Source: Candidatus Thorarchaeota archaeon (GTDB taxonomy: Archaea; Asgardarchaeota; Heimdallarchaeia; Hodarchaeales; Hodarchaeaceae). Taken from it: a DNA stretch of 64,000 nucleotides. The notes below the pieces were generated by a model. The model did not search any database and was not told where the DNA came from. It saw nothing but the letters and a program-made list of their open reading frames with translations. The position numbers and the translations under genes were made by a program. The stretch spans positions 25,485 through 89,484 of the forward strand of contig JBHLRO010000006.1 in the NCBI GenBank assembly GCA_048882505.1. The letters run 5' to 3'. The stretch's first letter is position 1. Every line of letters starts with the position of its first letter. This document shows, in pieces, positions 19,906 through 39,395 of the stretch.

Positions 19906-21408
19906 TCAACTAGGGAAATACTCGTAATCGTTACGAACTTTAATTGAGTCCGCAATATAATTTTCAATCATTGATTTCTCAATTTTTGTTCCGAAAGAAG
20001 AATTGGCAGCCACGATATTCTTCCATTCCATGTAGTTTTCTTGGATTTCATTTTTGATATGGACAATTCGTTCTTCTAGCCTTGCCTGACCTAGATTTTG
20101 AACCACTGACCTAGCCTCGTCTACTTTTTCAAGTGCTTTCTCAATGTTTCCACGAATCAGCCAGATCTGTGCCTTAATGGCGAGAATTTCTGCCAATAAA
20201 GAGTTAGATTTTAGGTTGTCCGCGATTTGATACATTTCGTCTGTTAGACCATGCAGTTCGTTAATGACTTCGTCATCCTCAGCGATCTTCAGTTCAAGGA
20301 TTAAGAGAGAACATAAATTGAGATAGATGTCTATCTTTTCATAAGCAGATAAATTCTGAATTGTGAGCAATTTCTTAAAAATTGCCTGGCTTCTAGCCAG
20401 GTTCCTTACTCTTTTCCCTTGCATCGTTAGAAGTGCGTCAGTAAATTCGCAGAAATATGCAATCCTCTCCGAACGTGTCTGATTATAGAGTTCCTTTAAT
20501 TGTTCGTATTGGAATTTGGCTCCATCTATATTATTCTGACTTAGCTCGATCAACGCCAAATCTTTCAGGTCGTATCCCACAGAGTGATACATTTCCGTGT
20601 CCATTCTAATTTTTTTCGCCTTAGTAATGAGTTCTGCGGCTCGTTCATTATTTCCTGCTTTGAAATAGACTCTACCCAGTACTTCATGATAACACGCAAC
20701 TGCCCAGAGGGTACATCGTTCTTCGACAACCTGTAACGCCTGCTCACCATATTTCAGTGCTTCATCAAGCTCTCCTTTTCGTAGATGGATTTCGGATAAG
20801 GTTCCATATTGACAACACAGATAAGGTTTCTCAGTAGTTAATGCGATTGCAATACTCTTATGAATGCTTGAAATTCCCTTTTCCAGATCTCCAATTTCAC
20901 AATACATATTCCCCATGTCATTATACAACTTGGTTAGGATGTAGGGAAGATCTGCTTTCTCTCCAATGGCAATCGCCTTTTTCATGTAGTTTATTCCATC
21001 TGAATATTTCCCTTCAGCAAGGGCACAAAATGCCCTCACTCCATACGCGGTTGCCGCCCAAACCATTCCCGCTCGGTCTTCTGGAAGCGGATTTTCTTCA
21101 ATTTGCTTTAACACACCATCAATCACCTTGGTTGCTTCAAATCCCTTGTATTCGCGGAGTAACACCCTGCTTTGGACGATTTTCAACATCAGGTTTTCGA
21201 ATGGCGGTAATTCTCCATACTCTCTGTTAATTATAGGTGCAATGAGACTCCGTACTGTTGTTAAATCTCCGTGTAGAATTGTGAAAAATGCGTCATAGAT
21301 ATCGCCCTTTATTTGGTTTTGTTTCTTCAGCTCCTCTATTCGGTCATATGCTTGATTAATATTTCCCCCCCAAAAATCGGAAAAGATGTGATATTCCAAC
21401 TTCATCAT
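19906..21408 (-). CDS. TPR/alpha-solenoid repeat protein
   Basis: 500 aa with repeated 34-aa-like helical hairpins carrying W/L/G/Y/A/F/A/P-type positions (e.g. AIAIALTTEKPYLCCQYGTLSEIHLRKGELDEALKYGEQAL; LGRVYFKAGNNERAAELITKAKKI). No TM segments. It is divergent from the Rab-like GTPase gene. Confidence 0.55.
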   Translation of the reverse strand: MMKLEYHIFSDFWGGNINQAYDRIEELKKQNQIKGDIYDAFFTILHGDLTTVRSLIAPIINREYGELPPFENLMLKIVQSRVLLREYKGFEATKVIDGVLKQIEENPLPEDRAGMVWAATAYGVRAFCALAEGKYSDGINYMKKAIAIGEKADLPYILTKLYNDMGNMYCEIGDLEKGISSIHKSIAIALTTEKPYLCCQYGTLSEIHLRKGELDEALKYGEQALQVVEERCTLWAVACYHEVLGRVYFKAGNNERAAELITKAKKIRMDTEMYHSVGYDLKDLALIELSQNNIDGAKFQYEQLKELYNQTRSERIAYFCEFTDALLTMQGKRVRNLARSQAIFKKLLTIQNLSAYEKIDIYLNLCSLLILELKIAEDDEVINELHGLTDEMYQIADNLKSNSLLAEILAIKAQIWLIRGNIEKALEKVDEARSVVQNLGQARLEERIVHIKNEIQENYMEWKNIVAANSSFGTKIEKSMIENYIADSIKVRNDYEYFPS

Positions 21409-21923
21409 TCTCCCATATTGAATTCTATTGCATGAAATTAACTAATGAGTACTTCTTCTTCCTTATTTGATGAAAGAGTAATGACTTAGGAAGAATTATA
21501 TGTCAATAAAATTATTATTCATTCTTATCTGAACTTCGTAATTAGATCACGATTAGTTCGCCTCTTCATGAAAACTTTTCAAATCGGATGAAAGGCTCGG
21601 GGTTCTGGCTGGTGTCGGAACTACGGCGCAAGAATTTGCAACCTCCAATAACGCTGGGAAAAGTTGGTGTGCGGACGGGTTGGGAGATAAACAAAGTTAC
21701 TCCGCGACATGAATTCAAAGCGTTTTCAACAGCTTCCGATAAAAACCGTTTTTAGCAAAGCATATGGATGAAAAAAGGTGATAGCTAGAGGAGAACGAAA
21801 AACAGTCTATCCTGGGCCTCGCAGGGTTATGGTAGAGCTAATGGGAAAAAATGCTAAACTGCGGCCCGTGATTATTGATTTGTTTCCATAGTTAAATCCA
21901 ATTCCTTCCTATTAGGAAGTAAA

Positions 21924-22553
21924 TTGGTAAAGGTTTTTGAAGGAGGAGAACCCCTCAAAATTGAACAGGTGGAAGAGCTGAACATAGACGAAATAATCCT
22001 CAAGATCTGCTCTATCGGTGATTACCAGGTGGGTAAAACCAGTCTTATTCACAGATATGCAGAGAATGTATTCAGTGAAGATTATTTACCTACCTTGGGG
22101 GTTGATATTACTACGAAACGTATTATTGTAGATGATACACCGATTAAATTGATTTTAATGGACACAGCAGGACAGGAACAGTTCGGTCGTATTCGTCGGT
22201 CGTATTTCCTAGGATGTGCAGGTTGTCTGATTGTCTACGATGTTACAAGGCGCGATTCTTTTGAATCTCTGGAACGATGGGTCAGAGAGTTTCGTTCCGG
22301 ACAACAACGAGAGAACAAGCCCATTGCGATTATAGGGAATAAGAACGATCTTAAGCAGGAGCGTCAGGTCGGGCGGCAGGAAGGGGAATCGTTTGCCAAG
22401 GTCATGGCAAATGTCTCCTTTTACGAATGTTCGGCGAAACTAGGGGGTCCTGAAATCCCCAGAATTTATGAAAATATTTCTCGTCAATACCTCAAATCGG
22501 TTCAATCGGGGCGGAATAGGGGGGACAAGGAACCGACTATGGTAACCCGATGA
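21924..22553 (+). CDS. Rab/Ras-like small GTPase
   Basis: 209 aa. Motifs: G1 GDYQVGKTSL, switch I LPTLGVDI, G3 DTAGQE, G4 GNKNDL, G5 ECSAK. The start is uncertain (TTG at 21924; a GGAGGAG ribosome-binding site sits at 21942-21948). Confidence 0.85.
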   Translation: MVKVFEGGEPLKIEQVEELNIDEIILKICSIGDYQVGKTSLIHRYAENVFSEDYLPTLGVDITTKRIIVDDTPIKLILMDTAGQEQFGRIRRSYFLGCAGCLIVYDVTRRDSFESLERWVREFRSGQQRENKPIAIIGNKNDLKQERQVGRQEGESFAKVMANVSFYECSAKLGGPEIPRIYENISRQYLKSVQSGRNRGDKEPTMVTR

Positions 22554-22885
22554 GACCATCGATTTCAAAGGCGGAGACTCCACGTACTACCAGCATTTTT
22601 TCGGCCGCTACACCGAGATCAGGATTGGATGGTTTCTATCACGGTTATCCGTAAAGCTACTCCCCTCTTGATTCGTTAGTTTTTATCAAATCCGCTTAAA
22701 TTACCTGATTGGTTTGTTTGCTTGGAAGATGAGCAAAGCGGCTTTGGAATTGGATCGACATTCAAGGGCGTCCTGCACAGAGAGCATCCAACAAAGCTCG
22801 GTTGCTCAAAGAATTCATCTTATGTCCTCTGCCAAGAGTACGTTGACTTTCCCCCTTAATCGATGTATCTGATCATTGAGAAATA

Positions 22886-23329
22886 TTAAGATAATTTTCT
22901 GACCTTCTTAAGAATTAAGACAAGAATAAAGGCCGTCAAACCTGAAATAAATCCGATTAAAATGATCGGTAAGTAGGATTGTGCCAATTTGGTGTAATAG
23001 ATTCCAAAAATATATGGGGAAGTCGAATCGTACAGAGAACCGACCATTTCGCCTGCAATAAGCCAACCTACTGTAATTAATGCGAATAATATCACAGGCC
23101 ACAAGACTGCGGAAAATATCGAGTGAACTATACTACCATTATTGATAGAAAATGAATTCCCACTGAGACTTTCAATAGTAATTGAGTCTGCAAGACTCCA
23201 AACTGATACCGACGGTTGCGCGAGGATGAAAAAATATAATATGCCGAGTAAGTACCATATCACAATCCATAAAGGCAATACAAAACCAATAGGTCGGTAT
23301 TTTATCGAAATATCTCTCTTCTCATGCAT
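22886..23329 (-). CDS. small integral membrane protein (4 TM)
   Basis: 147 aa with four hydrophobic helices. It lies between two GTPase genes. Confidence 0.4.
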   Translation of the reverse strand: MHEKRDISIKYRPIGFVLPLWIVIWYLLGILYFFILAQPSVSVWSLADSITIESLSGNSFSINNGSIVHSIFSAVLWPVILFALITVGWLIAGEMVGSLYDSTSPYIFGIYYTKLAQSYLPIILIGFISGLTAFILVLILKKVRKLS

Positions 23330-23676
23330 CTTGAACCCTTGAGGTAATTAACAAAAAACGGATATTTAAAGCATCCGCAAGTGTTCTTGGGCTCCCAAAG
23401 GGACTCCCTTTGAAATCCTTGAGCTACATCTGATTTTGGAGTTTTGAACAGCTACATGTGTCCAATACGTGCAATTATGATTCAATAGTTTCCATTAGAC
23501 CAATATGTCTATCCTTACTGTGTTCAAAACATATTAGAAGGAAAATAGCTTCAATTGGGGGAAAGAAATGGACAAAGAGGGATTCCATGCCTTTTTACTT
23601 ACTGGGATGAAATTGCTCCCCTCTGCATTGTTTTATTTGAGAATCTTAAAAAAATTGGACAATAAAACTAAACTAG

Positions 23677-24564
23677 ATGAGCAGGATGACCACTCCAAGT
23701 GGAATTTATAGCGTGATGATATACAGCCTAGAATCACGTCGCATTCTCATTCATCGAATATATTCTCGGGATGAATCTGTGGTTAATAATCTAGACACGC
23801 TTTATTCAACCATTGTGTCCTTTAAAGGTGAAAACGAGGGGAAAGAAGATGTGTCAACGTTTCCAATGAAAACTAGAAAAATCTTAATTACTTCCGCTGA
23901 AAACTTAATCTTCATGATTGTGGTTGCACCCCATTATGGAACTATCGAAGCGGAAAAAATCCTATCTCATATCAGGGCATCATTTTTCCGTAAATATCCT
24001 CTTGGTGATTGCAACTGGCATTTTGATGAACACATGAACTATCTCGTGGGATTTAAAGCCGTCATAGATGAGATAGTGGAACACTTCGGCGACCCAAAGA
24101 CCATAGTAAAAATCGTGCTGATGGGAATAGACTACGCGGGCAAAACGACGTTAACACATGCTTACGCGGGGAGTAATTATCGAGATTATCTCCCTACAAT
24201 GGGACTGGACATTCTAAGAATAGAATACAAGAATAAACACATTCGTTTATGGGATCTTGGCGGGCAAATGCTGTTTAGAAGCTTATGGCCTAAGTTTGCG
24301 AATGAAGCATCTGGAATAATTTTTGTCGTTGATTCAGCCACAACCCGGTGGAGCGAAACCAAAGAAGTATTTGAAATCTCTCTGCTGTTTAAATTACCCT
24401 ATATCATATTTGCTAACAAACAGGATATAGTAAAACGAGCACAAAGCATTAACTTCATTGCGGAGAGGTTACAAGTTCCTGAAGAAAAAATAGTAAAAGG
24501 GAGTGCTTTATTGAACAAAGGGATCTATGAAGTCTTAGATGGGTTACTGGATGAAATTGGTTGA
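23677..24564 (+). CDS. Arf-like small GTPase with N-terminal longin/roadblock-like domain
   Basis: 295 aa. The N-terminal ~135 aa show beta-beta-alpha-beta-beta-alpha-like alternation (IYSVMIYSLESRRILIHRIY / VVNNLDTLYSTIV / ILITSAENLIFMIVVAP / TIEAEKILSHIRASFF). The C-terminal G-domain has G1 GIDYAGKTT, switch I PTMG, G3 WDLGGQ and G4 ANKQD, which are the Arf/Arl-type forms of these motifs. Confidence 0.8.
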   Translation: MSRMTTPSGIYSVMIYSLESRRILIHRIYSRDESVVNNLDTLYSTIVSFKGENEGKEDVSTFPMKTRKILITSAENLIFMIVVAPHYGTIEAEKILSHIRASFFRKYPLGDCNWHFDEHMNYLVGFKAVIDEIVEHFGDPKTIVKIVLMGIDYAGKTTLTHAYAGSNYRDYLPTMGLDILRIEYKNKHIRLWDLGGQMLFRSLWPKFANEASGIIFVVDSATTRWSETKEVFEISLLFKLPYIIFANKQDIVKRAQSINFIAERLQVPEEKIVKGSALLNKGIYEVLDGLLDEIG

Positions 24565-24627
24565 GCACTTAATTGTCTAAATCAAAGAGGAAGTGAATGT
24601 TTTTAGCCATTAAAGGAAGGTCTAAGA

Positions 24628-26361
24628 ATGATGGAAACATCAGAAGTGGCTACGATTGAGAAATTGCAGGAAAAGCTCAAATTCCGTCGAAAAGTTGAAA
24701 GGGCGATTGGGGATATTTCGACTTATCTTGTTTTTTCAAGTAGTTTCAACCTGTCCATCGAATATTTCCTCTCCGAAATCGCAGAACTATACCATTTCTA
24801 TTTTGTAGATGGGGCAGCTGTTTGTTTATTTGATGAACCTTCTAATGACCAAATTTCGGTACTTGGATGGAATTCAGAAAAAAATATAGATAATCGTGTA
24901 AATCTTAAGGAATTTCCGATTGGAAATTTCATCTGGTTCCAAAACCAGATCAAAGCAGGGCGCGAACTTGTTCTCACTGAAACTTATGAATTCTCGAATG
25001 AGGCCCAACCAGAAAAAGCCTTTTTTAGTGAACATACTATCAAATCCCTCATCGCAATCCCTATCTTCACTCCTGAATATATTGCGGGTACATTTGTGCT
25101 GGTTAGCCTATCCAACCAGGTGTGGCAGGAGGAAGATCTTCGTACCCTTAGATTGTTCGCTGAACTTTTGGGTACAGCAATCTTTCGAAAAAAAACGGAG
25201 GAGACGCTTTCAAAGGCGAGAGACTATTTAAAGGCTCAAATTGACCGAAAAACTGAGGATTTAAGCACTGAAAAGCAAAGAATCGAATTGATCCTGAATA
25301 CAATAAAGGATGGAGTCATCGTACTTGATCAAGATGGGAAGGTGACCATGGCTAATGAAACCTCAAAGCGATTTTTTAATCTGATTATGGATTTGCCGCT
25401 GATTATAGGCGTTAACCTAGTTTTAAGCACTGGAAATACGTTTTTTAGAACCATAAGAGGTCTCTTTTTGTCGTTTTTTAAAAACGAAGTGACAATTGAA
25501 CCTAAAAAGGGACTCCATCTTCAAATTGCCTCGGCTCGGGGAAAATATCCTGCCCTTCATACCTCCGGCATGATAATTGAGCTTCGAGACGTTACAGCGT
25601 TTATAGAGTTTGACAATATGCGAAAGCGATTCGTTTCTACCGTGAGTCATGAACTTCGAACCCCGATTACGGTTATTAATCAGTCCATCAATAATTATGA
25701 GAAATATGGAAATAAACTGCCAGAAAAGACCAAAACGAAATTATTCTCTGCAATCGCACGGAATTCCCGACTGCTTTATGAACTGGTGGAGGACCTACTT
25801 TTGATTTCTAAAATAGATGAACGAAGGATCGATGAGAGAGGATTTGAGCTCCATTGGCAGGACTACGATATAAAACAGATTATAGATGAAGTCACAACGC
25901 AATTAGAGCCCAGGGCCAAGGCCAAGGATATTAATATCCTTAAATCGGGTTTTGTGAAAGCGCCTATGTTTGGGGACCCGAATCGTGTTGCTCAGATATT
26001 TCGTGCATTAATTGATAATGCCATCAAATATTCTGGCAGTTCAAGTATAATTAGGATTACAGGAAAGGATGATTATACGGGAAAATACAATACGCAGGGA
26101 ATAAATGGAATTCTTGTTAAAGTTATCGATTCGGGGATTGGAATAGACGGGGAGGATCTACCAAAAGTATTTAATAGATTTTTTCGGGCCAAAAGTGTAA
26201 GTCACATATCGGGAACAGGATTAGGGTTAGGTATTGCTCGTGATCTTGTGAAGATGCATAAAGGGGAATTGTTTGTTGAAAGTGCCTTAGGAAAGGGAAC
26301 TATTACGCTTGTGTTTTTGCCTAGAATCACCGAGGCCGAGTTAAGACCTGAAGAGAGCTAA
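24628..26361 (+). CDS. cytoplasmic sensor histidine kinase (GAF-like + PAS + HisKA + HATPase_c)
   Basis: 577 aa with no TM segments. PAS: LILNTIKDGVIVLDQDGKVTMANETSKRFF. H-box: VSHELRTPITVI. N-box: DNAIKYS. G1: DSGIGI. G2: GTGLGLGIARDLVKMHKGELFVES. Confidence 0.9.
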   Translation: MMETSEVATIEKLQEKLKFRRKVERAIGDISTYLVFSSSFNLSIEYFLSEIAELYHFYFVDGAAVCLFDEPSNDQISVLGWNSEKNIDNRVNLKEFPIGNFIWFQNQIKAGRELVLTETYEFSNEAQPEKAFFSEHTIKSLIAIPIFTPEYIAGTFVLVSLSNQVWQEEDLRTLRLFAELLGTAIFRKKTEETLSKARDYLKAQIDRKTEDLSTEKQRIELILNTIKDGVIVLDQDGKVTMANETSKRFFNLIMDLPLIIGVNLVLSTGNTFFRTIRGLFLSFFKNEVTIEPKKGLHLQIASARGKYPALHTSGMIIELRDVTAFIEFDNMRKRFVSTVSHELRTPITVINQSINNYEKYGNKLPEKTKTKLFSAIARNSRLLYELVEDLLLISKIDERRIDERGFELHWQDYDIKQIIDEVTTQLEPRAKAKDINILKSGFVKAPMFGDPNRVAQIFRALIDNAIKYSGSSSIIRITGKDDYTGKYNTQGINGILVKVIDSGIGIDGEDLPKVFNRFFRAKSVSHISGTGLGLGIARDLVKMHKGELFVESALGKGTITLVFLPRITEAELRPEES

Positions 26362-26449
26362 AAGATTTGAGTTTTGATAGCTTTTTAAGAACGGAAAGGA
26401 GAAGTCAAGTGAGTAGAGTACGGAGGCCCGAAGGATTTCAGACTTAATT

Positions 26450-26815
26450 ATGGTCGTAGAAGACAATCCTGATGTTTTGTTTAATCTAGTGGTAACGCTT
26501 GAAGCTAATGGATATGAAGCAGAAGTTGCCACAAATGGTAAGGAAGCCACAAGAGTTCTGTTGAAAAAAGATCCCGAATCACTACCAAGTCTAATAATCA
26601 GTGATATTATGATGCCGGAAATGGACGGGTACGAATTCTACCAATTTTTACAGGGGGATCAAGCATACAAGCATATACCCCTAATCTTTCTCTCCGCCCT
26701 CGCGACACCAGATGATATTCGCTTTGCGGAAATATTGGGTGCCAAAGATTACATAACAAAACCATATAATGAAGAAAAGTTGCTTACCTTGATTAGAGAG
26801 AAACTGGACGGGTAA
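26450..26815 (+). CDS. single-domain CheY-like response regulator (receiver only)
   Basis: 121 aa. MVVEDNPDVLFNLVVTLEANGYEAEVATNG...LIISDIMMPEMDGYEF...YITKPYN contains the phospho-acceptor Asp (DIMMP) and the conserved Lys (TKP). It lies 88 nt downstream of the HK gene on the same strand. Confidence 0.85.
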   Translation: MVVEDNPDVLFNLVVTLEANGYEAEVATNGKEATRVLLKKDPESLPSLIISDIMMPEMDGYEFYQFLQGDQAYKHIPLIFLSALATPDDIRFAEILGAKDYITKPYNEEKLLTLIREKLDG

Positions 26816-26822
26816 GTGATCC

Positions 26823-28067
26823 TCAAAATTCATAGAGGCCCCAACTGGCCGAGACTGTTCTCGGTTGTTGATCCACATGGATTCGTATGATTCTAGAGAA
26901 CCCGAAAACGTTTCCTAGACCTGTTAATAACCCTTCGATAACCCCTATAATTAGAAGTGAGCTTCCTTCTCGTGGTATCTCGATGTCTACCTGCATTCCA
27001 CCAGCAATATTACTTATTTCCACCCCAATTAGCTGATGAACTGGTTTATCCAGCATTTTACCTATATTTCCAGATAACCAATCCCTGAAGATATTGTTTG
27101 CCAGACTTTCGCCATAAGGAACGGAGAGCGCCTTAATTTTTTTCCAAAACTCTTTCGAGTCCGATTCAGGAGCTAGCTCTCCAGATAGGGTTTTCCATAC
27201 GTGGTTCTGAGTCTCAAAGAATATCGAACTTCTTAAAACATTGATCAATAGATCTTGGGGAATCATTCGGGCTAGAATTCGCATGAAGGCCAAGTAAAGA
27301 GAATCATCCAAGATGGAAGAAAGGAATACAGAATAACGGGGCCAGATAAACAGACCTTTAAAAGCCTTTAAGAAGTCTAAGAGATTGGGTTGGAGCTCGC
27401 TCACCTTGTTAGGATCATACTTATGAGCTAATAATCCGATGAAGGGCGATTCCTTCATTGCTTTGAGAACATTCATAATATCGGTTAGGTAAATGTACGC
27501 CTCTTCGAATTCGGCTGGGTTTTGGATATCAACCATGAAAATTAATGCTGTTAGGTTTTTCCACTTAAATTCGTCATAAACATGTTTTTTTACGTATTCC
27601 GTCTGTCCGCCTAAATCAAAAATGGTTAATTCAGTTTTTAAAACGTCTATGAACGAATTAAAAATAGAATAATCGACAGTTGGTCTGATCCTATCCAACT
27701 GTTCTTTGTTCCAGGAATCAAAAAATCCACGAATGGCTGTGGTCTTTCCTGCTTTTCTTAATCCTGCAACAACTATTTTAGGAAGTTTCCTCCTGGGTTT
27801 CTGAGAGGGAGGTGCGGGCAATTTGAATTCATGCGTAAACCATTCATCGAAAAACGAGTCAACTTTCTCTGTAACCTCAGGTGTAATGAAATCCAACTCT
27901 TGGTCTTTGAATCGCTCTTCAATACTATTCCCCAGATTTTCAATTATCGGATAGAGATCGTCCGAACTAGTACCTAGTGGAGTCATGACTGAGACCAGTA
28001 CAGAAGCGAACCTTTTTACATGTAGTTGGGAATTTGAAAAAACAAGCTCCTGAATGTCATCTTTCAC
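26823..28067 (-). CDS. Rag/Gtr-like small GTPase with C-terminal roadblock-like domain and N-terminal extension
   Basis: 414 aa. Motifs: G1 VVAGLRKAGKTT, G3 FDLGGQ, G4 LAHKYD. The HKxD form of G4 (instead of NKxD) is diagnostic of the Rag/Gtr family. The C-terminal ~150 aa carry a roadblock-like strand/helix pattern (VHQLIGVEISNIAGGMQVDIEI...SSLLIIGVIEGLLTGL). There is an N-terminal extension of about 95 aa. Confidence 0.7.
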   Translation of the reverse strand: MKDDIQELVFSNSQLHVKRFASVLVSVMTPLGTSSDDLYPIIENLGNSIEERFKDQELDFITPEVTEKVDSFFDEWFTHEFKLPAPPSQKPRRKLPKIVVAGLRKAGKTTAIRGFFDSWNKEQLDRIRPTVDYSIFNSFIDVLKTELTIFDLGGQTEYVKKHVYDEFKWKNLTALIFMVDIQNPAEFEEAYIYLTDIMNVLKAMKESPFIGLLAHKYDPNKVSELQPNLLDFLKAFKGLFIWPRYSVFLSSILDDSLYLAFMRILARMIPQDLLINVLRSSIFFETQNHVWKTLSGELAPESDSKEFWKKIKALSVPYGESLANNIFRDWLSGNIGKMLDKPVHQLIGVEISNIAGGMQVDIEIPREGSSLLIIGVIEGLLTGLGNVFGFSRIIRIHVDQQPRTVSASWGLYEF

Positions 28068-28548
28068 GATTTCCTTAGAGAACTGAATTAATGCCGAAAG
28101 AAATCCCGATATTAGCTGACTGTCATGGTCCAGAAAGAACGAGGGTTCAAAGTTTTTTTGATAAAGCTCTATCCCTGTGTCAATGTTTATGACTGAAATC
28201 CGTTTAATGGAAGATTGAGAAGGATCTGACGTCGTTGATTTCGCTCCAGTCTGCGAAGATTGAGGATTACAACTTACGTTATGAATACTTTAGTCGAGAA
28301 ATATCCCGTACAATGTATTTCCGAACTGGAATACTATGATGTTCATGTGACCGATTCTCCTTAAGGGTGAAGGAAATTCGTCTGATGCACTGAAACTTGT
28401 CAAACCATATTTATTAACTTAGTCATATTTATCGATTTCAGAAATTCTCTAGCAGGTTTTCAAATGTTCACTAAAAGCAAAATGTTTTGAAGAAGTATTG
28501 ATATGATAAAGAAAGCATAAGTGAACGATCCCCATTGGAGTGAAGTAA

Positions 28549-29268
28549 ATGGGAAAAGACAACAACGGTCAGGAATACGAATCGTTTTATGATCTTTGGG
28601 AACGTATAAAAAGCGAAGAATTAACTATTTTACCAGAAGAATCCAAAACCCATATTGAAGAGAATTTATTCCTTGATGAACAAGGAGGGGAGTATTTTAT
28701 GAAGATTGTATTAGCAGGGGATGGTGCCGTTGGAAAAACTTCCTTAAGACGAAGTTTTTTAGGCGAGGATTTTTCATTTGACTACCAAACGACAATCGGA
28801 GCCGATTTTGCCACCCATCGGGAACAAATAGCCAATCGATCCGTGAAATTTGTAATTTGGGATCTGGCAGGCCAACCCCAGTTTCATCAGGTAAGAAAAA
28901 CGTTCTATTCCGGGGCACACGGAGCACTTGTTGTATGTGATTTAACCAATCCCACCTCGTTCGAAAACCTGAAGCACTGGATAAATGAACTATGGCGATA
29001 CAATGCGGAAGGGCCCGTGCCCTTTGTCATTGTGGGAAACAAATGCGATCTTAGGGATTTGGGATATGCAAGAATTTCTGATAAAAAGATTCATTCTGTT
29101 ACAAAAATCATTAATGAAGAAACCTCACGGAAAAGTGGGTTTGGCGTCAAATCCATTACCACAAGTGCACGAACGGGGGAAGGAGTAATAGAAGCGTTCA
29201 AGCAGTTAGCTGTCCAAATTATTGCACATCGTAACTACATCAGGAGAAAGCGTCAAAAACCCGAGTAA
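28549..29268 (+). CDS. Rab-like small GTPase with ~50-aa N-terminal extension
   Basis: 239 aa. Motifs: G1 GDGAVGKTSL, switch I YQTTIGADF, G3 WDLAGQ, G4 GNKCDL, G5 TSAR. Confidence 0.85.
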   Translation: MGKDNNGQEYESFYDLWERIKSEELTILPEESKTHIEENLFLDEQGGEYFMKIVLAGDGAVGKTSLRRSFLGEDFSFDYQTTIGADFATHREQIANRSVKFVIWDLAGQPQFHQVRKTFYSGAHGALVVCDLTNPTSFENLKHWINELWRYNAEGPVPFVIVGNKCDLRDLGYARISDKKIHSVTKIINEETSRKSGFGVKSITTSARTGEGVIEAFKQLAVQIIAHRNYIRRKRQKPE

Positions 29269-29363
29269 CCTGCGCGTAACTAATGGACGAATTTCAGATG
29301 GTAATTCTGTTTAAGAAAAATTGCTGTCCATGGTAGAAAAGACTTCTACGAAACGTTCCGCAG

Positions 29364-30263
29364 CTAGCGTAAATTAGAGGAGGTAGTTGATAGAATTTTG
29401 ACAAAATTATCCCAGTTCAGATTCTCAGAGAACTGGTTTCCGTGCTTATAGTCTGTTGCCATCTTTTCAAATTCCTCCTTTATTCTGAGGGACGCGAGAT
29501 AGTTAATTTTCTGAGCTAGAAGGACGATCATAAATTGGCGTTTGCCCCCTCTAACTTCTGGATCTTCAATCGTATCAAAGTAAATATAGCCGTCTCGGTC
29601 GATGTTTGCGATTCGTAATAAAACCCCTTGTGGCTCATAATAATCCAGCTGGCCGTAGACTGAGACCGCGGTTTGAAACAGCTGGGTGCCAAGCTGGCGT
29701 AAGTCAAACTTAGTGTTGGAATCTGATGGAAAGATATCTCTTACTTTGGGACCATAAGCTTCATCCCATATCACATTAAAGAGTATAACTTCTCCTCTTT
29801 CACTTGGGGTCATTGAAGAACCGAGCTCATTTCGCAAGGATGTAAGCAGGTTTTTTTCGATTTGTTTACCCAGTTCTTTGTTTTTTATACTCCGCTGGAT
29901 CTTTCCGGCAATTGATGATAACAAATCCTTGTCGTTGAAGGGTTTGGTGATATAATCATCTACTCCAAGTATTTTGCCAAAACGTACATCCTCAGGAGAT
30001 GCTTTCGCTGTAAGAAAGATAAAAGGGATAAAACTCCACGCCGGGTTATCAGAAACACGGCTGAAAAATTCGTATCCGTCCATTTCCGGCATCATGATGT
30101 CACAGAGGAAGAGGTCTGGGGGTTCATCGAGTTCAGATAACATGTTGAAGGCTTCGATGCCATTTTTTGCGCCTATCGGCCTGTATCCATTGAATTCCAA
30201 CAATAATTCCAGGTTGTAGAGGATTTTAGCATTATCTTCAATGATAAATATTGTAGGTTTCAT
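29364..30263 (-). CDS. response regulator: receiver domain fused to C-terminal roadblock/longin-like alpha/beta domain
   Basis: 299 aa. The N-terminal REC is MKPTIFIIEDNAKILYNLELLLEFNGYRPIG...LFLCDIMMPEMDGYEFF...YITKPFN, with high identity to the 26450 receiver. The C-terminal ~150 aa show a beta-alpha-beta-beta-alpha pattern (EVILFNVIWDEAYGPKV / LRQLGTQLFQTAVSVYGQL / GVLLRIANIDRDGYIYFDTI / RQFMIVLLAQK / INYLASLRIKEEFEKM). It lies 52 nt downstream of the hybrid HK on the same strand. Confidence 0.75.
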   Translation of the reverse strand: MKPTIFIIEDNAKILYNLELLLEFNGYRPIGAKNGIEAFNMLSELDEPPDLFLCDIMMPEMDGYEFFSRVSDNPAWSFIPFIFLTAKASPEDVRFGKILGVDDYITKPFNDKDLLSSIAGKIQRSIKNKELGKQIEKNLLTSLRNELGSSMTPSERGEVILFNVIWDEAYGPKVRDIFPSDSNTKFDLRQLGTQLFQTAVSVYGQLDYYEPQGVLLRIANIDRDGYIYFDTIEDPEVRGGKRQFMIVLLAQKINYLASLRIKEEFEKMATDYKHGNQFSENLNWDNFVKILSTTSSNLR

Positions 30264-30315
30264 TTAATTACCCTGAATTGTCTCTAGATCACAGTTAAGT
30301 CGAGTTTTTCTTCCC

Positions 30316-32394
30316 CTAATTGACCAATACGGGGAGAAAAACTGAAAAAGTTGATCCTTTGCCTAATTCGCTGTCCACGAAGACTTCCCCGTTTTGAATT
30401 GCTGCTAATTCCTTTGCGATCGATAATCCCAGCCCGGTTCCAGGCACATCCTTCACATTGCTTGCTCTGAAAAAGCGATCAAATATATAGGGCATGTCCC
30501 TTTCACTTATGCCGATTCCAGCATCATTAACTTGAATTAATAGACCATCAAGTTTTTTCGGGTTGTATTTCCCCTGATAATCAGTTATAGCCCCAATCGT
30601 AACAGTCGTTCTTTCAGCAGAGTATTTAATGGCATTATCCATTAGGATGCGTAACATTTGGCCAAGTCTTTTCGAATCTCCCACTATTTCAACTGCAGGA
30701 GGTATATTGGTGCTAATTGTGATATTCTTTACCAGTCGTGCGGGCTCTAATTGGATTAATACTTCGCTTATAATGTCCCAAAGCGCATATGTGCTTACAT
30801 CCAGCTTCAATTCACCGCTCTCTATTCTGGATACGATCAAAAGATCTTCTATCATTTGATTCAGAACAGTAGAACTCTCTGCAACCATATCAACAATACT
30901 ATCAATCTGTGCCGCTGATAACTGGTCGCGGTAGTTCTGTAAATTCCTAATTGAGAGGTCAATCGCGGTAATTGGAGTTCTGAGTTCATGAGACACCATT
31001 GAGATAAATTGCTCTCTGAGTCGATCCAGTTCCACCAGAGAAGTCACATCGCGGACTGTGATTACAATGCCAATAGGAGGGTTTGGTGGATTTAATACCA
31101 TAGAGGAGGTAAGCTGAAGGAAAAGCCCTGGGTGAGGCTCGATGGTTTTGTATTCCTTCTTTTGAGAAAAAAATGCCTTGGCAATCGCCTCGCCAAATGG
31201 ATGTCCGATACTGGGGATATCGCGGAGGAGTGGAGGTAACTCCTTGTTATAAATCCTCTTGTAGAATTTCTTGAATATTTCATTAACATAATAAACTCGG
31301 CCTTCAGTGTTAAAAACAACGACCCCATCAGGGATGGTTTCCACAATCCTCTCAATTCGCTGTTTTTCTTCCGTTAAGTTTTGTGTGGCTATTTCGACTT
31401 TTCGTGCCAAGGAATCTTTGGTTCGTTTTAACGCTTCTTCAGCCATCTTCCGCTTGGTGATGTCTTCAAAACTGCCTTCATAGTATAATACCGACCCCTG
31501 TTCATCTTTTATTGCTTTCGCATTCTCCCGGATAAAGACCGTGGAGCCATCCAGTCTCTTAAGCTTCTGTTCAAACCCTCTAATCTCGTCTGCTCTCTCG
31601 ATCAATTCCCGAAAATCTTGTCTCGGATAGTCCATCTTGGTCGATAACTCATTCATATTAATGGCACGCATTTCTTCCAATGAGGAAAACCCCATCATTC
31701 GTATGAATTCGGCATTTGCTGCAAGTAGCTTTCCGCCTGGTGTCATTCGATAAAGTCCGATGGGCATACCTTCAAATAACGTGCGATACCTTTTTTCGCT
31801 TTGTTTAAGCGCTTCCTCCATTGATTGACGCTCAATGAGTTGATCTCGGAGTTTATTAACTAATTGCCTTCTTTCTTTCTCCAGATGCAGCCTCTCAAGG
31901 GTATCCCGGATCTTAATTAGCACATCCTGGACATCAAAGGGTTTAACTATGTAAGCTGATGCCCCCATGTTTAGGGCACCGATTGCTGATTCCTGTGACG
32001 CATATCCCGTTATGATCATCATCACAAGATCTGGTTGCAATTCCTTCATCACTTTTAACAAGCGAATGCCATCAAGATCAGGTAATCTAATGTCTAAAAG
32101 GGCAATATCGTATATTCTTTCTTTCAGCTTATCCATAGCATCTTTCCCAGTATATGCGGAATTCGCAATATATCCGGCTTTCTTAAAAATTAGTTTTAGT
32201 AAACTACATGTATTATCATCATCATCATCTACGATCAGAATTCTCCCTGTGATCTTATTGTAAGTACGTTGAATAGTTCGGGCAGATTCATCTAGAATGG
32301 ATTTGTCAAGTTCTTTAAGGTTTTCTGCGTTATTTAGAAGTAATGAGAAATCCTTTGGCGAATTCGTGTTTTGATGTTCCCTGTTATTTTCCAT
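30316..32394 (-). CDS. cytoplasmic hybrid sensor histidine kinase (REC + 2xPAS + HisKA + HATPase_c)
   Basis: 692 aa. REC: GRILIVDDDDDN...DIALLDIRLPDLDG...IVKPFD. PAS: KRYRTLFEGMPIGLYRMTPGGKLLAAN and QRIERIVETIPDGVVVFNTEGRVYYVN. H-box: VSHELRTPITAI. N-box: DNAIKYS. G1: NDAGIGIS. G2: GTGLGLSIAKEL. Confidence 0.9.
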   Translation of the reverse strand: MENNREHQNTNSPKDFSLLLNNAENLKELDKSILDESARTIQRTYNKITGRILIVDDDDDNTCSLLKLIFKKAGYIANSAYTGKDAMDKLKERIYDIALLDIRLPDLDGIRLLKVMKELQPDLVMMIITGYASQESAIGALNMGASAYIVKPFDVQDVLIKIRDTLERLHLEKERRQLVNKLRDQLIERQSMEEALKQSEKRYRTLFEGMPIGLYRMTPGGKLLAANAEFIRMMGFSSLEEMRAINMNELSTKMDYPRQDFRELIERADEIRGFEQKLKRLDGSTVFIRENAKAIKDEQGSVLYYEGSFEDITKRKMAEEALKRTKDSLARKVEIATQNLTEEKQRIERIVETIPDGVVVFNTEGRVYYVNEIFKKFYKRIYNKELPPLLRDIPSIGHPFGEAIAKAFFSQKKEYKTIEPHPGLFLQLTSSMVLNPPNPPIGIVITVRDVTSLVELDRLREQFISMVSHELRTPITAIDLSIRNLQNYRDQLSAAQIDSIVDMVAESSTVLNQMIEDLLIVSRIESGELKLDVSTYALWDIISEVLIQLEPARLVKNITISTNIPPAVEIVGDSKRLGQMLRILMDNAIKYSAERTTVTIGAITDYQGKYNPKKLDGLLIQVNDAGIGISERDMPYIFDRFFRASNVKDVPGTGLGLSIAKELAAIQNGEVFVDSELGKGSTFSVFLPVLVN

Positions 32395-36524: not shown

Positions 36525-39395
36525 TTGTTCATGCCAGTTTTTGCTCTGGATTCTACTGTGTATATCGTGTTTTCTGCGGAGCACTCGACATCCTATGAAA
36601 TACATGGGCCAATTTACATCGTTGGAAACCAAGATTTTCATACTCAAGCCAGTTCAGAAAATTGGGCGGGAAATGGAACACTAACCTCCCCGTACGTCAT
36701 CGAGAGCCTCTATTTGGTCGGCCAAGCTGACTTGATTCGAATAGAAGGTACGGATGTATTTTTTAGTATCAATAATTGCTGGATAGGATTCGGATCTAAT
36801 GGGATTTCCTTGGCTAATGTAACCAACGGGCGGATTATGGGCAATAACATCACCTATAACGACGGTTACGGAATTGATCTCTGGGCTTCCACAAATACTC
36901 TCATTTCGGGGAATACAATCACAAACAACAATAACATCGGAATAAATCAGAATTACCTGGAAAATACCACGATCTCAGGGAATATAATATCCAAAAACGG
37001 CGGGGGGGGAATAGATGGAAGTTTCTCTAATAGAAGTTCCATAATTGGCAATACTATTTCTGAGCATTGGGGAACTGGTATTCATATGTATATCTCGATT
37101 GGCAATATCATTGACAGTAATAACCTAACTGGTAACCGAATCAATGGCATCGGCCTTGAAGGGTCATCCAATATCACTATAACCAGCAATACCCTTACGA
37201 GTAACGGTGGATCTGGGATAAATCTAGCCTACTCTGGGAATAATCGCATTATTGATAATAGCCTAGTAAACAATGGTCTAAATATTGATGGCTGGGAGCT
37301 TGAGCACTATTTACAAACTGAAGTGGCCAATAATTCAGTTAATGGTAAGTTAATAGTTTATTGGCAGCAGATTACTGGGGGAACCGTCCCAACGGGCGCT
37401 GGCGAAGTTATTTTGGTGAATTGCACAGGAATCGAGGTTACTGGACTGACCATTGAGAATGCATCGACAGGGATCCGTGTTGTTTTCGGTTCTAATGTAG
37501 TAATACACGATAATAACATTTTCAATATGGTTAGATCTGGAATTGATATAGGAAACACACAGAATACTACGATAACGGGGAATACTCTTACCAATAATTC
37601 CGATGGCATCATTTTTCAAAATTCCATATCTGGAATCATCACTGGGAACAAAATTAGAAACAGGGGTGGTCGGGGACGGGGAATGGGAATAAGATTGGAT
37701 TATTCCCATAAAATTAATGTTTCAGGGAACATCATCAGCAATAACGAATACAATGGCATTTGGCTAGAATCATCTGATAGTAATCATATTGCAGCCAACA
37801 ATATCACTGATAACGGACACAACGGCATTCGTTTGGGAGCTTCCAGTAATAACACTATTTTGGGTAATAATATCCTAAATAACTCACACCATGGTATTCG
37901 TGTGAGGGATTCAGGAAACAGTACGGTTTTAGGCAATACTGTCGTTGCCAGCGGCGTGGATGGGATTAATATTGCTAACGCGGGCAGTTCGACCATTTCG
38001 AGCAATGCGGTGATTGATAATGAGAGAATTGGAATGCATTTTGTTTCTTCGGGAAATAATCGAATTACTGATAACATCCTTGTAAACAATGGCATGGATG
38101 TTGAAGGTGGGGCCCTCGAGGATTATGTACAAGCTGATGTGGGCAATAATTCGATTGATGGGAAACCGATAATTTATTTTCAGCAGGTTACCGGAGCGAC
38201 CGTCCCATACGATGCGAGTGAAGTGTTTTTGGTCGATTGTCATGACGTCGCGGTGATCGATTTGACCCTTTCGGACGGTTTGTTAGGTATGGTGGCTGCC
38301 TATAGCTCTAACTTGAGGATTTCCGGTAATAAAATATCCAGTAATGTAAGAGAAGGGATACGTTTGTATCGTACGGATAATAGCATTATTTCTGATAATT
38401 CTGTTAAAGACAACGGATGGGATGGTATTCATCTGAGTGCCGCAGGTTATAACGTTATATCGGATAACGATGTCATTAATAACGGAGGATGGGGGATTAC
38501 AGTGTCTGATTCCGAAACAAACATCATTTCAGGAAATTTGGTAACGCAAAGTACCGATGGTATTAACATAGACTCCTCGAATAATCCCATCATTACAAGC
38601 AATACCGTTAGGGATAACAGCGGATCTGGTTTACGGATAAGATTTACGCCAGGAAGCAATATTTCCACCAACACCATTACTAACAACGGAGCCTCGGGAA
38701 TATACTTGGAAGGATCTGGGGAGAGCATTATCGGAGAAAATTCTATTACGAGGAGTCATGAGGCAGGCGTCTATCTGCTTCAATCAAACGGTTGCAACAT
38801 TACCAGCAATATAATCATGGAAAATGAAGGGATCGGCCTTGATCTATTCTTTGCTGAGAATGCTGTCGTTTCAGGAAATGCAGTTGGTAATAACAACCTT
38901 TGGGGAATTATGTTACGTCATTCACAGGACAGCTTAATAATGGAGAATTCAGTAAACGATAATGAAGTCGGTGGCGTCTACCTGTCAGGATCTGGAAGTA
39001 CTAAAATTTTGGGTAATCTAATCGCCAATAACTCATATTATGGAATCTATCTAACCCAATCAGCCGGATGCGTTGTCGCTGGAAATAACTTCATTGGAAA
39101 CAACAGAGTGAATGAGCAAGCATTTGATGATAGCCCAAATAATACGTTTATTTTTAATTACTGGAATGACTGGACAGGCCCAGATACCAATCGAGACGGA
39201 GTGGTAGATCAACCTTACCGCATTGATGGAACAGCAAATAACTACGATAACTTTCCTCTGATTAACCCTGTCGTAGATCACGCAGTTGCAACCCCTGATC
39301 ATTTGGTTACTGTTTCCTTTCTGGTTCTCGTGATTCTTGGCGCTATAGGGTTTTCAACTCGGATTAAACGCGGGGACAAAACTGCCAGGATTTGA
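36525..39395 (+). CDS. large right-handed parallel beta-helix (PbH1/NosD-like) repeat surface protein with internal duplication and C-terminal TM anchor
   Basis: 956 aa. N-terminal motif IYIVGNQDFHTQASSENWAGNGTLTSPYVIE. Two homologous halves: HYLQTEVANNSVNGKLIVYWQQITGGTVPTGAGEVILVNCTGIEVTGLTIEN versus DYVQADVGNNSIDGKPIIYFQQVTGATVPYDASEVFLVDCHDVAVIDLTLSD. There are dozens of ~22-aa beta-helix repeats. Conserved C-terminal motif NNTFIFNYWNDWTGPDTNRDGVVDQPYRIDG. TM helix LVTVSFLVLVILGAIGFS. Confidence 0.75.
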   Translation: MFMPVFALDSTVYIVFSAEHSTSYEIHGPIYIVGNQDFHTQASSENWAGNGTLTSPYVIESLYLVGQADLIRIEGTDVFFSINNCWIGFGSNGISLANVTNGRIMGNNITYNDGYGIDLWASTNTLISGNTITNNNNIGINQNYLENTTISGNIISKNGGGGIDGSFSNRSSIIGNTISEHWGTGIHMYISIGNIIDSNNLTGNRINGIGLEGSSNITITSNTLTSNGGSGINLAYSGNNRIIDNSLVNNGLNIDGWELEHYLQTEVANNSVNGKLIVYWQQITGGTVPTGAGEVILVNCTGIEVTGLTIENASTGIRVVFGSNVVIHDNNIFNMVRSGIDIGNTQNTTITGNTLTNNSDGIIFQNSISGIITGNKIRNRGGRGRGMGIRLDYSHKINVSGNIISNNEYNGIWLESSDSNHIAANNITDNGHNGIRLGASSNNTILGNNILNNSHHGIRVRDSGNSTVLGNTVVASGVDGINIANAGSSTISSNAVIDNERIGMHFVSSGNNRITDNILVNNGMDVEGGALEDYVQADVGNNSIDGKPIIYFQQVTGATVPYDASEVFLVDCHDVAVIDLTLSDGLLGMVAAYSSNLRISGNKISSNVREGIRLYRTDNSIISDNSVKDNGWDGIHLSAAGYNVISDNDVINNGGWGITVSDSETNIISGNLVTQSTDGINIDSSNNPIITSNTVRDNSGSGLRIRFTPGSNISTNTITNNGASGIYLEGSGESIIGENSITRSHEAGVYLLQSNGCNITSNIIMENEGIGLDLFFAENAVVSGNAVGNNNLWGIMLRHSQDSLIMENSVNDNEVGGVYLSGSGSTKILGNLIANNSYYGIYLTQSAGCVVAGNNFIGNNRVNEQAFDDSPNNTFIFNYWNDWTGPDTNRDGVVDQPYRIDGTANNYDNFPLINPVVDHAVATPDHLVTVSFLVLVILGAIGFSTRIKRGDKTARI

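Follow-up and report, generated by a model that had tools for sequence, protein, structure and literature searches.

What does an Arf-type GTPase do in an archaeon when another folded domain stands in front of it and a sensor kinase gene lies immediately downstream? We asked this of one gene in a 64,000-nucleotide (nt) stretch from a Candidatus Thorarchaeota archaeon (GenBank assembly GCA_048882505.1, contig JBHLRO010000006.1, positions 25,485 to 89,484, forward strand; hereafter the window), whose open reading frame (ORF), here called longin-Arf, is placed with its domains and neighbours in Table 1. A sequence-only reading of this gene had seen a longin/roadblock-like or profilin-like domain fused to an Arf-type GTPase, had connected such fusions with the precursors of membrane trafficking, and had suggested co-transcription with the kinase gene. 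Our analyses point in another direction for function, in that longin-Arf is probably a two-domain cytosolic switch at the core of a module that also comprises a soluble histidine kinase, a single-domain receiver and, usually, a Rag-type GTPase.

The GTPase half is Arf-type both by sequence and by modelled fold, with the catalytic Gln197 present. Pfam Arf (PF00025) aligns to residues 134-293 with E=1.4e-28 and 100 bits against a cut-off of 22.3, a match far beyond chance, which bears out the 295-residue ORF and its assignment to the Arf type in the sequence-only reading; the PTMG, WDLGGQ and ANKQD motifs named there also lie where it had put them, and ~135-140 residues precede the G domain, in keeping with its estimate of ~135. 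Motifs G1 to G5 are invariant across 23 homologs and agree with the Arf-type pattern (GLDxAGKT, PTxG, WDxGGQ, NKQD). Among PDB sequences the closest are Arf1, Arf2, Arl2 and Arl3, all of which span only residues ~140-294. A full-length AlphaFold2 (AF2) model (mean predicted local distance difference test score, pLDDT, 80.8; predicted template modelling score, pTM, 0.59) has Arl2/3/6/1/13B, Arf1/6, the Asgard ArfRs GerdArfR1 and HodArfR1, and one Rab1b as its top 50 Foldseek matches in the PDB, with no Rag/Gtr structure among them. Rag/Gtr membership finds no more favour in Pfam, where Gtr1_RagA reaches 16.7 bits, under its cut-off of 22, and the match of the G domain to SRPRB is weak (27.3 bits versus 100 bits for Arf).

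For the N-terminal ~135-140 residues no Pfam or NCBIfam family reaches its cut-off. An AF2 model of residues 1-140, made from a 17-sequence alignment (pTM 0.77, mean pLDDT 78.6), is assigned by DSSP the strands and helices b1 10-17, b2 22-28, a1 39-53, b3 60-63, b4 68-74, b5 77-83, a2 89-106 and a3 120-137, and this b-b-a-b-b-b-a-a order, which is that of longins, is repeated in the full-length model. Foldseek comparison of the N-domain model with the PDB revealed 50 matches at E<=1e-3 that were mostly longin proteins, led by the VAMP7 longin (4afi; E=2.3e-5, query TM-score, TMq, 0.67) and followed by the Sec22b N-domain, the sigma and N-terminal mu subunits of AP-1/2/3, zeta-COP and the TRAPP subunits Bet5 and Trs23, such that the leading longin matches range from E 2e-5 to 1e-3 and from TMq 0.53 to 0.67. 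The sequence-only reading had named the lack of any longin, roadblock or SRX similarity as the outcome that would speak against it, and longin similarity is what the model and the Foldseek search found. Its roadblock or profilin alternative did not survive, being ruled out by topology and by the ranking of these matches: the Roadblock/LC7 order (a-b-b-a-b-b-b) is not present in the model, which has no helix before b1 and two helices at its C-terminal end, and roadblock matches (LAMTOR and MP1/p14) rank lower, with alignments of only 100-113 columns.

Relatives identified by profile are consistent with this placement. Twelve of the 17 N-domains in the family match Pfam Longin below threshold (best E=5.4e-4), and among 1.84 billion cluster representatives a hidden Markov model (HMM) built on the N-domain found 194 proteins at E<=1e-3. 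Pfam scans of 101 of these returned 28 matches to Fuz_longin_1 (best E=2e-8), 13 to Longin, 7 to Clat_adaptor_s and 4 to Intu_longin_1; a GTPase domain was present in only 6 of the 101, and by these sequence matches the longin-GTPase fusion is a minority architecture within a larger and mostly unfused set of longin proteins. On the strength of the predicted structure and these profile relatives the N-domain belongs to the longin superfamily, and we regard the overall architecture, a longin domain followed by an Arf-type G domain, as very highly probable.

This architecture bears directly on whether the protein could act at membranes. We found no amphipathic or myristoylated N-terminal Arf helix, the N-terminus being filled by the ~138-residue longin domain, and because helix a3 of that domain enters b1 of the G domain via about 4 residues the Arf membrane anchor is lacking. 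No transmembrane segment is evident from Kyte-Doolittle averages over 19-residue windows, since the most hydrophobic stretch (mean 1.46, at residue 69) belongs to beta strands in the core of the longin domain. The sequence ends '...LLDEIG', where no lipidation motif is recognised. Around the junction (residues 120-141, nt 24034-24099), helix a3 (120-137) runs into b1 (142-149) and so lies, in sequence, where Arfs carry their N-terminal amphipathic helix. Pfam Arf begins to align within a3, at residue 134, and full-length Arl2 and Arl3 give several Foldseek alignments of ~180 columns, exceeding the ~154 residues of the G domain.

A precursor of the membrane-trafficking Arfs, with the longin domain standing in for a coat- or SNARE-type partner such as sigma-adaptin or zeta-COP, would account for the clearly Arf-type G domain and for the presence among the N-domain's structural neighbours of AP sigma and zeta-COP, which are subunits of coats recruited by Arf1. 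Some Asgard Arfs, moreover, bind membranes on expression in yeast (PMC11914678; bioRxiv 10.1101/2024.02.28.582541). Against this, the helix with which Arfs cycle on and off membranes is here replaced by the longin domain, neither a transmembrane segment nor a lipidation motif was seen, and Asgard Arfs (AArfs) with extra N-terminal domains are, according to Zhu et al., probably not membrane-acting (PMC11914678). Gene context, considered below, adds to these objections in that the conserved neighbours are all soluble signalling proteins, with no coat, SNARE or ESCRT genes among them. We therefore consider a trafficking role very unlikely, and the trafficking-precursor framing of the sequence-only reading is weakened by the missing anchor and by the signalling neighbours alike.

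Evaluating the gene context further, we searched by tblastn, with the window proteins, two GTDB loci and the contigs on which six diverged orthologs (49-59% identity) lie. Orthologs of the kinase and the receiver adjoin the longin-Arf gene in 9 of the 10 loci that carry an ortholog (window included), the eight besides the window being L001, L003, L004, L006, L007, L008, L010 and L011; in these the kinases share 55-59% identity over about 570 aa and the 121-aa receivers 64-75%. Rag-type orthologs (49-63% identity) are adjacent in L001, L003, L004, L006 (two copies), L010 and L011; L008 has a partial one (45%), at the edge of its contig. Among 31 GTDB loci that share only the G domain, a kinase ortholog was found in none. 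The orientation of the genes is far less constant than their company: the kinase-receiver pair runs in the same direction as the GTPase gene in the window and L008 alone, is divergent from it in L001, L006 and L010, and is convergent in L003, L004, L007 and L011. Outer flanks vary too, being an SMC-ScpB-type set in some loci and hydrolases or other kinases elsewhere. Because adjacency is kept despite differing flanks and inverted cassettes, it points to selection on proximity and not to residual synteny, and we hold it highly probable that the longin-Arf gene is functionally linked to the two-component system. As a separate observation on the flanks, an SMC gene and an unassigned gene end directly upstream of longin-Arf on the same strand in L003, L004, L007 and L008, three of which have two ScpB-like genes in that set as well, and in the window this SMC set does not adjoin the longin-Arf gene.

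The same linkage bears on a second account, in which the GTPase is self-contained and the longin domain serves as a cis-acting guanine nucleotide exchange factor (GEF; as in Mon1/TRAPP) or GTPase-activating protein (GAP; as in FLCN/NPRL2) acting on the G domain of the same chain or of a dimer partner, and the two-component genes nearby have no part in its function. In eukaryotes longins do supply the catalytic part of GEFs or GAPs for Rab, Rag and Arf (PMC12290439, PMC10933270), Fuz_longin_1, the GEF-type first longin of Mon1/FUZ/HPS1, is matched by many N-domain relatives, and R27 on b2, which is nearly invariant across the family alignment, speaks for such a role. GAP-type longins, however, carry a conserved GP motif just before or at the start of b2, beside an arginine finger (PMC12290439), and here the b1-b2 loop reads 'LESRR' in the window protein and 'xxSGxT' in the family consensus; with no GP motif in that loop, a longin of the GAP type (FLCN/NPRL2/SMCR8) is ruled out. 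The G domain furthermore retains its own catalytic Gln197, and adjacency to kinase and receiver in 9 of 10 loci despite rearrangements would be hard to explain if they were unrelated, so that we judge a purely self-contained GTPase quite unlikely.

Linkage is not the same as a shared transcript. The kinase gene does lie downstream and co-directional with longin-Arf across a spacer of exactly 63 nt, as the sequence-only reading had it, and of its proposal of co-transcription the kinase linkage has proved real and conserved and the shared transcript has been neither shown nor conserved, co-direction being confined to 2 of the 9 loci; what is conserved is therefore gene linkage. Within the spacer, the Shine-Dalgarno (SD)-like AAGGAAGG would favour coupled expression of the GTPase and kinase genes, and the run of five T residues may represent a TATA-like element or an archaeal terminator. 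In L008, where alone besides the window the pair is co-directional, the spacer has 43 nt, neither of these features and no obvious common signal, so that spacer conservation is uninformative on co-transcription.

Among the partners, kinase and receiver have intact catalytic motifs, as does the GTPase. The kinase has an H-box, HELRTP, whose first residue (341) is the phospho-accepting His, and its G-boxes; its sensor domains are only the cytoplasmic-type GAF and PAS, with no transmembrane-sensor domain found by Pfam. The receiver, which has no output domain, carries the acidic pair E4-D5 and the phospho-acceptor Asp (in 'SDIMMPEMDG'), with a Ser at 'FLSA' and a Lys at 'ITKP'. For the Rag-type family profile the best PDB matches are 8yl2, 8zla, Gtr2, RagA and RagC; we found no literature on entries 8YL2 and 8ZLA. 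Its N-terminal ~150 residues align by hhalign with the longin-Arf longin profile (probability 77.5%, E=1.9e-5, 102 columns, b1 to a2) and thus appear to be a distant relative of the longin domain of longin-Arf. Neither a Pfam family nor a PDB sequence matches the C-terminal ~150 residues, which leaves a V4R/TRAPPC3-like guess for this domain unsupported; the whole-protein profile aligns beyond the G domain to 8yl2, and the region may be roadblock-like.

About 23 full-length homologs of longin-Arf (37-65% identity) conserve both domains, including the invariant N-domain residues F79, L96, S97, H98, F103, W114 and F126, and every named one bears an Asgard label (Thorarchaeota, Hodarchaeales or Promethearchaeota), which makes this a small, Asgard-specific orthologous family. 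Since a GTDB scan with the full-length alignment (exact patterns) returned only two full-length loci, the taxonomic breadth of the family is probably undercounted. Some orthologs (P0011, P0013, P0014, P0015 and P0022; loci L007, L004 and L009) carry an extension at the C-terminus that brings them to ~470 aa, in which Pfam matches GAF/GAF_2 in P0015 and P0022; GAF is a sensor class found at the N-terminus of the kinase too. L004 and L007 retain the kinase-receiver neighbours and L009 does not. An origin of the extension as a fragment of the neighbouring kinase's GAF, by gene fusion or fission, was ruled out for lack of similarity (best E=0.44, with the P0013 extension).

How might these parts work together? 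In longin-Arf the longin domain would replace the myristoylated amphipathic helix that eukaryotic Arfs use for membrane binding and would act as a built-in platform for dimerisation or regulation, as longin/roadblock modules do for Rab, Rag and MglA, perhaps pairing the Arf-type GTPase with itself or with its Rag-type neighbour. The soluble kinase would read an intracellular ligand via GAF and PAS and then phosphorylate the receiver, which, having no output domain, would most likely act by binding the GTPase pair; the phosphorylated form would thereby shift nucleotide state or partner choice, with the GTPases as the output of the phosphorelay. We put this specific signal direction and mechanism, with the receiver acting on the GTPases, forward tentatively and at rather less than even odds. 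Somewhat more doubtful again is the full proposal that the four genes form a dedicated archaeal circuit in which a His-Asp phosphorelay sets the nucleotide state or pairing of an Arf/Rag heterodimer via its N-terminal longins. More speculatively, the third longin helix, a3, stands in the sequence where an Arf has its N-terminal helix, so that the Arf interswitch toggle might act through it to move the longin domain and not to expose a membrane anchor.

Signal could also run the other way, with the GTPase as an input to the kinase, the nucleotide state of longin-Arf and of the Rag-type protein controlling autophosphorylation (for example via the kinase GAF) and the receiver signalling elsewhere. 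The conserved linkage fits this equally well, the C-terminal GAF-like domain of some orthologs could pair with the kinase GAF, and kinase-GTPase interactions in actinobacterial conservons depend on both catalytic activities (PMC4316618). Two observations pull against it, namely that the kinase GAF and the GAF-like extension of P0013 have no detectable similarity (best E=0.44) and that a receiver with no output domain beside two GTPases is most simply read as acting on those GTPases. We consider the GTPase-as-input account unlikely, and prefer longin-Arf as the switch on which the phosphorelay acts.

Several points weigh against this preferred reading. The window N-domain scores 12.1 bits with Pfam Longin (PF13774), short of the 26.2 cut-off (E=0.18), and its profile finds no PDB sequence even at E<=10, so that what places the domain among the longins is not direct sequence homology to a solved structure but predicted structure together with sub-threshold and transitive sequence matches; the orientation of longin and G domain relative to each other is likewise uncertain, with a full-length pTM of only 0.59. 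The kinase neighbour was not found in L009, the locus of the most distant homolog (P0022, 37% identity). GTPases and kinases are both plentiful in Asgard genomes, and Tran et al. note that MK-D1 as a rule does not place GTPases and their regulators in common operons (PMC10933270). Physical interaction, signal direction and any GEF or GAP role are what we infer from an observed architecture and an observed orthologous linkage, and the current data do not distinguish the direction of signalling from that of the GTPase-as-input account.

Table 1. Features of the longin-Arf locus and its surroundings, in window coordinates.
Feature	Position	Strand	Basis or detail
Longin-Arf fusion GTPase ORF, 295 aa	23677-24564	+	ORF list, NCBI match, homolog alignment
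Predicted longin-fold domain, residues ~8-138	23698-24090	+	AF2 model, Foldseek, sub-threshold Pfam Longin, profile relatives
Arf-family G domain, residues 142-295, G1-G5 intact, Gln197	24100-24561	+	Pfam, PDB sequence matches, Foldseek
P-loop GIDYAGKT (G1), residues 150-157	24124-24147	+	G150, G155, K156, T157 invariant in family
Switch I PTMG (G2 Thr174), residues 173-176	24193-24204	+	P173, T174, G176 invariant in family
WDLGGQ (G3/switch II, Arf-type), residues 192-197	24250-24267	+	Invariant in family
ANKQD (G4), residues 246-250	24412-24426	+	Invariant in family
SAL, residues 276-278	24502-24510	+	Invariant in family
GTPase-kinase spacer, 63 nt	24565-24627	+	T5 run 24600-24604; SD-like AAGGAAGG 24613-24620
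Soluble sensor histidine kinase GAF-PAS-HisKA-HATPase_c, 577 aa	24628-26361	+	Pfam, orthologs in 8 other loci
Single-domain CheY-like receiver, 121 aa	26450-26815	+	Pfam Response_reg E=1e-23
Rag/Gtr-type GTPase, longin-like N-domain, unassigned C-terminal domain	26823-28291	-	Pfam Gtr1_RagA E=7.8e-18, 65.2 bits
Rab/Ras-like small GTPase, 239 aa, ~50-aa N-terminal extension	28549-29268	+	Pfam Ras E=2.6e-40
Rab-like GTPase flanking the module	21924-22553
TPR/MalT-like protein	19906-21408	-
Response regulator, 299 aa, unassigned C-terminal half	29364-30263	-
Hybrid REC-PAS-PAS kinase	30316-32394	-
Hydrophobic protein, 147 aa, no Pfam match	22886-23329	-	Divergent from longin-Arf gene, 347-nt intergenic region
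Protein of 956 aa, seven NosD/right-handed beta-helix repeats	36525-39395	+	Pfam Beta_helix E=3.6e-104; apparently unrelated to longin-Arf

Two gene starts within the module call for comment. For longin-Arf itself, an identical (100%) NCBI protein, P0001, annotated as 'ADP-ribosylation factor-like protein [Candidatus Thorarchaeota archaeon]', has 292 aa, and in the family alignment the homolog N-termini line up with the window protein at 'MTTPSG...', so that the true start is probably the ATG at 23686 (292 aa) and not that at 23677. The A/T-rich TTTATTTGAGAATCTTAAAAAAATTGG at 23632-23658 lies about 20-45 nt 5' of both candidate ATGs and, judged by eye, would fit an archaeal TATA/BRE and a transcript with a very short leader or none. 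The Rag-type gene is called as 414 aa from a GTG at 28067, both in the ORF list and at NCBI (P0121), and its homologs have ~467 aa. Upstream of that GTG the frame stays open to about 28291 and encodes the conserved N-terminus '...SSIKRISVINIDTGIELYQKNFEPSFFLDHDSQLISGFLSALIQFSKEI', with no in-frame ATG, GTG or TTG between the stop (about 28292-28294) and 28067; the start codon is either non-canonical or lost, or the metagenome-assembled genome is in error here. As annotated, the Rag-type protein would be without b1-b2-a1 of its longin-like domain.

The surroundings, from 19906 to 32394, are dense in signalling genes and include a second two-component pair at 29364-32394; in L001 and L006 the module likewise has further kinase/regulator pairs at its flanks. 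Orthologs of the downstream Rab-like GTPase (54-60% identity) occur near the longin-Arf gene in L006, L010 and L011, and the hydrophobic protein encoded upstream has no counterpart in the orthologous loci examined.

The fusion architecture as such is already published and ordinary for Asgard archaea, in line with the statement of the sequence-only reading that such fusions had been discussed there (PMC4917890, PMC10933270, PMC11914678, bioRxiv 10.1101/2020.10.19.343400). It has been known since 2016, when longin-Arf-like fusions were described in Lokiarchaeum (Klinger 2016, as cited by Dey 2016, PMC4917890). Besides longin-Rag fusions, Liu 2020 described NPRL2-like longins joined to two-component domains, and suggested for Asgard archaea a control of growth built around two-component systems with 'eukaryotic' regulators (bioRxiv 10.1101/2020.10.19.343400); Tran 2024 catalogued L-G, G-RB and L-G-RB architectures in MK-D1 (PMC10933270); and Zhu 2025 listed longin N-termini among the AArfs, those with extra N-terminal domains being probably not membrane-acting (PMC11914678). 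Like these, longin-Arf has an N-terminal longin fused directly to an Arf/Rag-like GTPase that lacks lipidation signals. It differs from them in that neither its own orthologous family nor a fixed tie to one kinase-receiver pair plus a Rag-type paralog is described in the literature searched, and in that Tran et al. class the MK-D1 fusions as structurally Rag-like (PMC10933270), whereas the window G domain is Arf-type by sequence and modelled fold. We found no literature combining Asgard, longin and histidine kinase, in a search that did not exhaustively cover the supplementary tables of the large Asgard surveys, and the four-gene association may so far be undescribed.

An Arf/Rag and two-component module of this kind is a modestly new and testable lead that favours signalling over trafficking, and its four named proteins could be tested for interaction in vitro without culturing the organism. 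Asgard GTPases and longins are often cited as proto-trafficking evidence, and an Arf that has lost its anchor and gained a longin domain, tied genomically to a soluble two-component system and a Rag-type paralog, is a counter-example. It supports the position taken by Dey et al. 2016 and Liu et al. 2020, in which many Asgard GTPases serve as cytosolic signalling switches within prokaryotic phosphorelays. If the proposed circuit holds, it would represent a prokaryotic forerunner of Rag-type nutrient signalling, with two-component chemistry where Ragulator, GATOR and TOR later sit.

Comparison with known systems places the module beside several relatives in design. Actinobacterial conservons, among them the mfp conservon, consist of the histidine kinase CvnA, the roadblock/MglB-like CvnB, CvnC (DUF742) and the MglA-like GTPase CvnD (PMC4316618, PMC13015309), with interactions that depend on kinase and GTPase activity (PMC4316618). 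They too are a conserved locus joining a sensor histidine kinase, a small Ras-superfamily GTPase and a roadblock/longin-superfamily regulator, and in them too the GTPase has been proposed as the signalling output (PMC4316618, PMC13015309). Conservons, however, lack a response regulator and combine a membrane-bound kinase, a separate roadblock protein, CvnC/DUF742 and a GTPase of the MglA type, whereas the window module has a soluble kinase, a receiver, a fused longin, and Arf- and Rag-type GTPases. Pfam scans of the longin-Arf neighbours reported no CvnC-type family, and of the four-gene conservon only the kinase-plus-GTPase logic is held in common.

RomR, a response regulator of Myxococcus, connects the chemosensory system Frz with MglA/MglB, a GTPase/GAP module (PMC3441718, PMC9481161), so that in MglA/MglB/RomR-RomX, as would be the case here, a small GTPase, a roadblock-superfamily regulator and a receiver protein connect a His-Asp pathway to a GTPase cycle. 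There the genes are unclustered, an output region forms part of RomR, MglB stands apart as a roadblock homodimer, and both the GTPase family and the domain of life are different. The longin-Arf module thus resembles the conservon and the Myxococcus system by analogy, in design logic, and belongs to neither by composition.

Two eukaryotic systems complete the comparison. In SR-alpha SRX/SR-beta a longin-like domain of SNARE-like fold partners an Arf-like GTPase, as in longin-Arf, but on separate chains in a membrane-anchored receptor, and no SRX structure is among the top 50 Foldseek matches of the N-domain model. Rag-Ragulator/GATOR1/FLCN-FNIP likewise places paired GTPases under longin/roadblock platforms in cytosolic nutrient signalling, a likeness sharpened on the window side by a neighbour that is Rag/Gtr-type by profile and by longin-like domains on both module GTPases. 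Rags, in contrast, dimerise via C-terminal roadblock domains and not N-terminal longins, and the window module is without the GP motif of GAP longins, has a prokaryotic two-component system as its sensor, and includes no TOR kinase.

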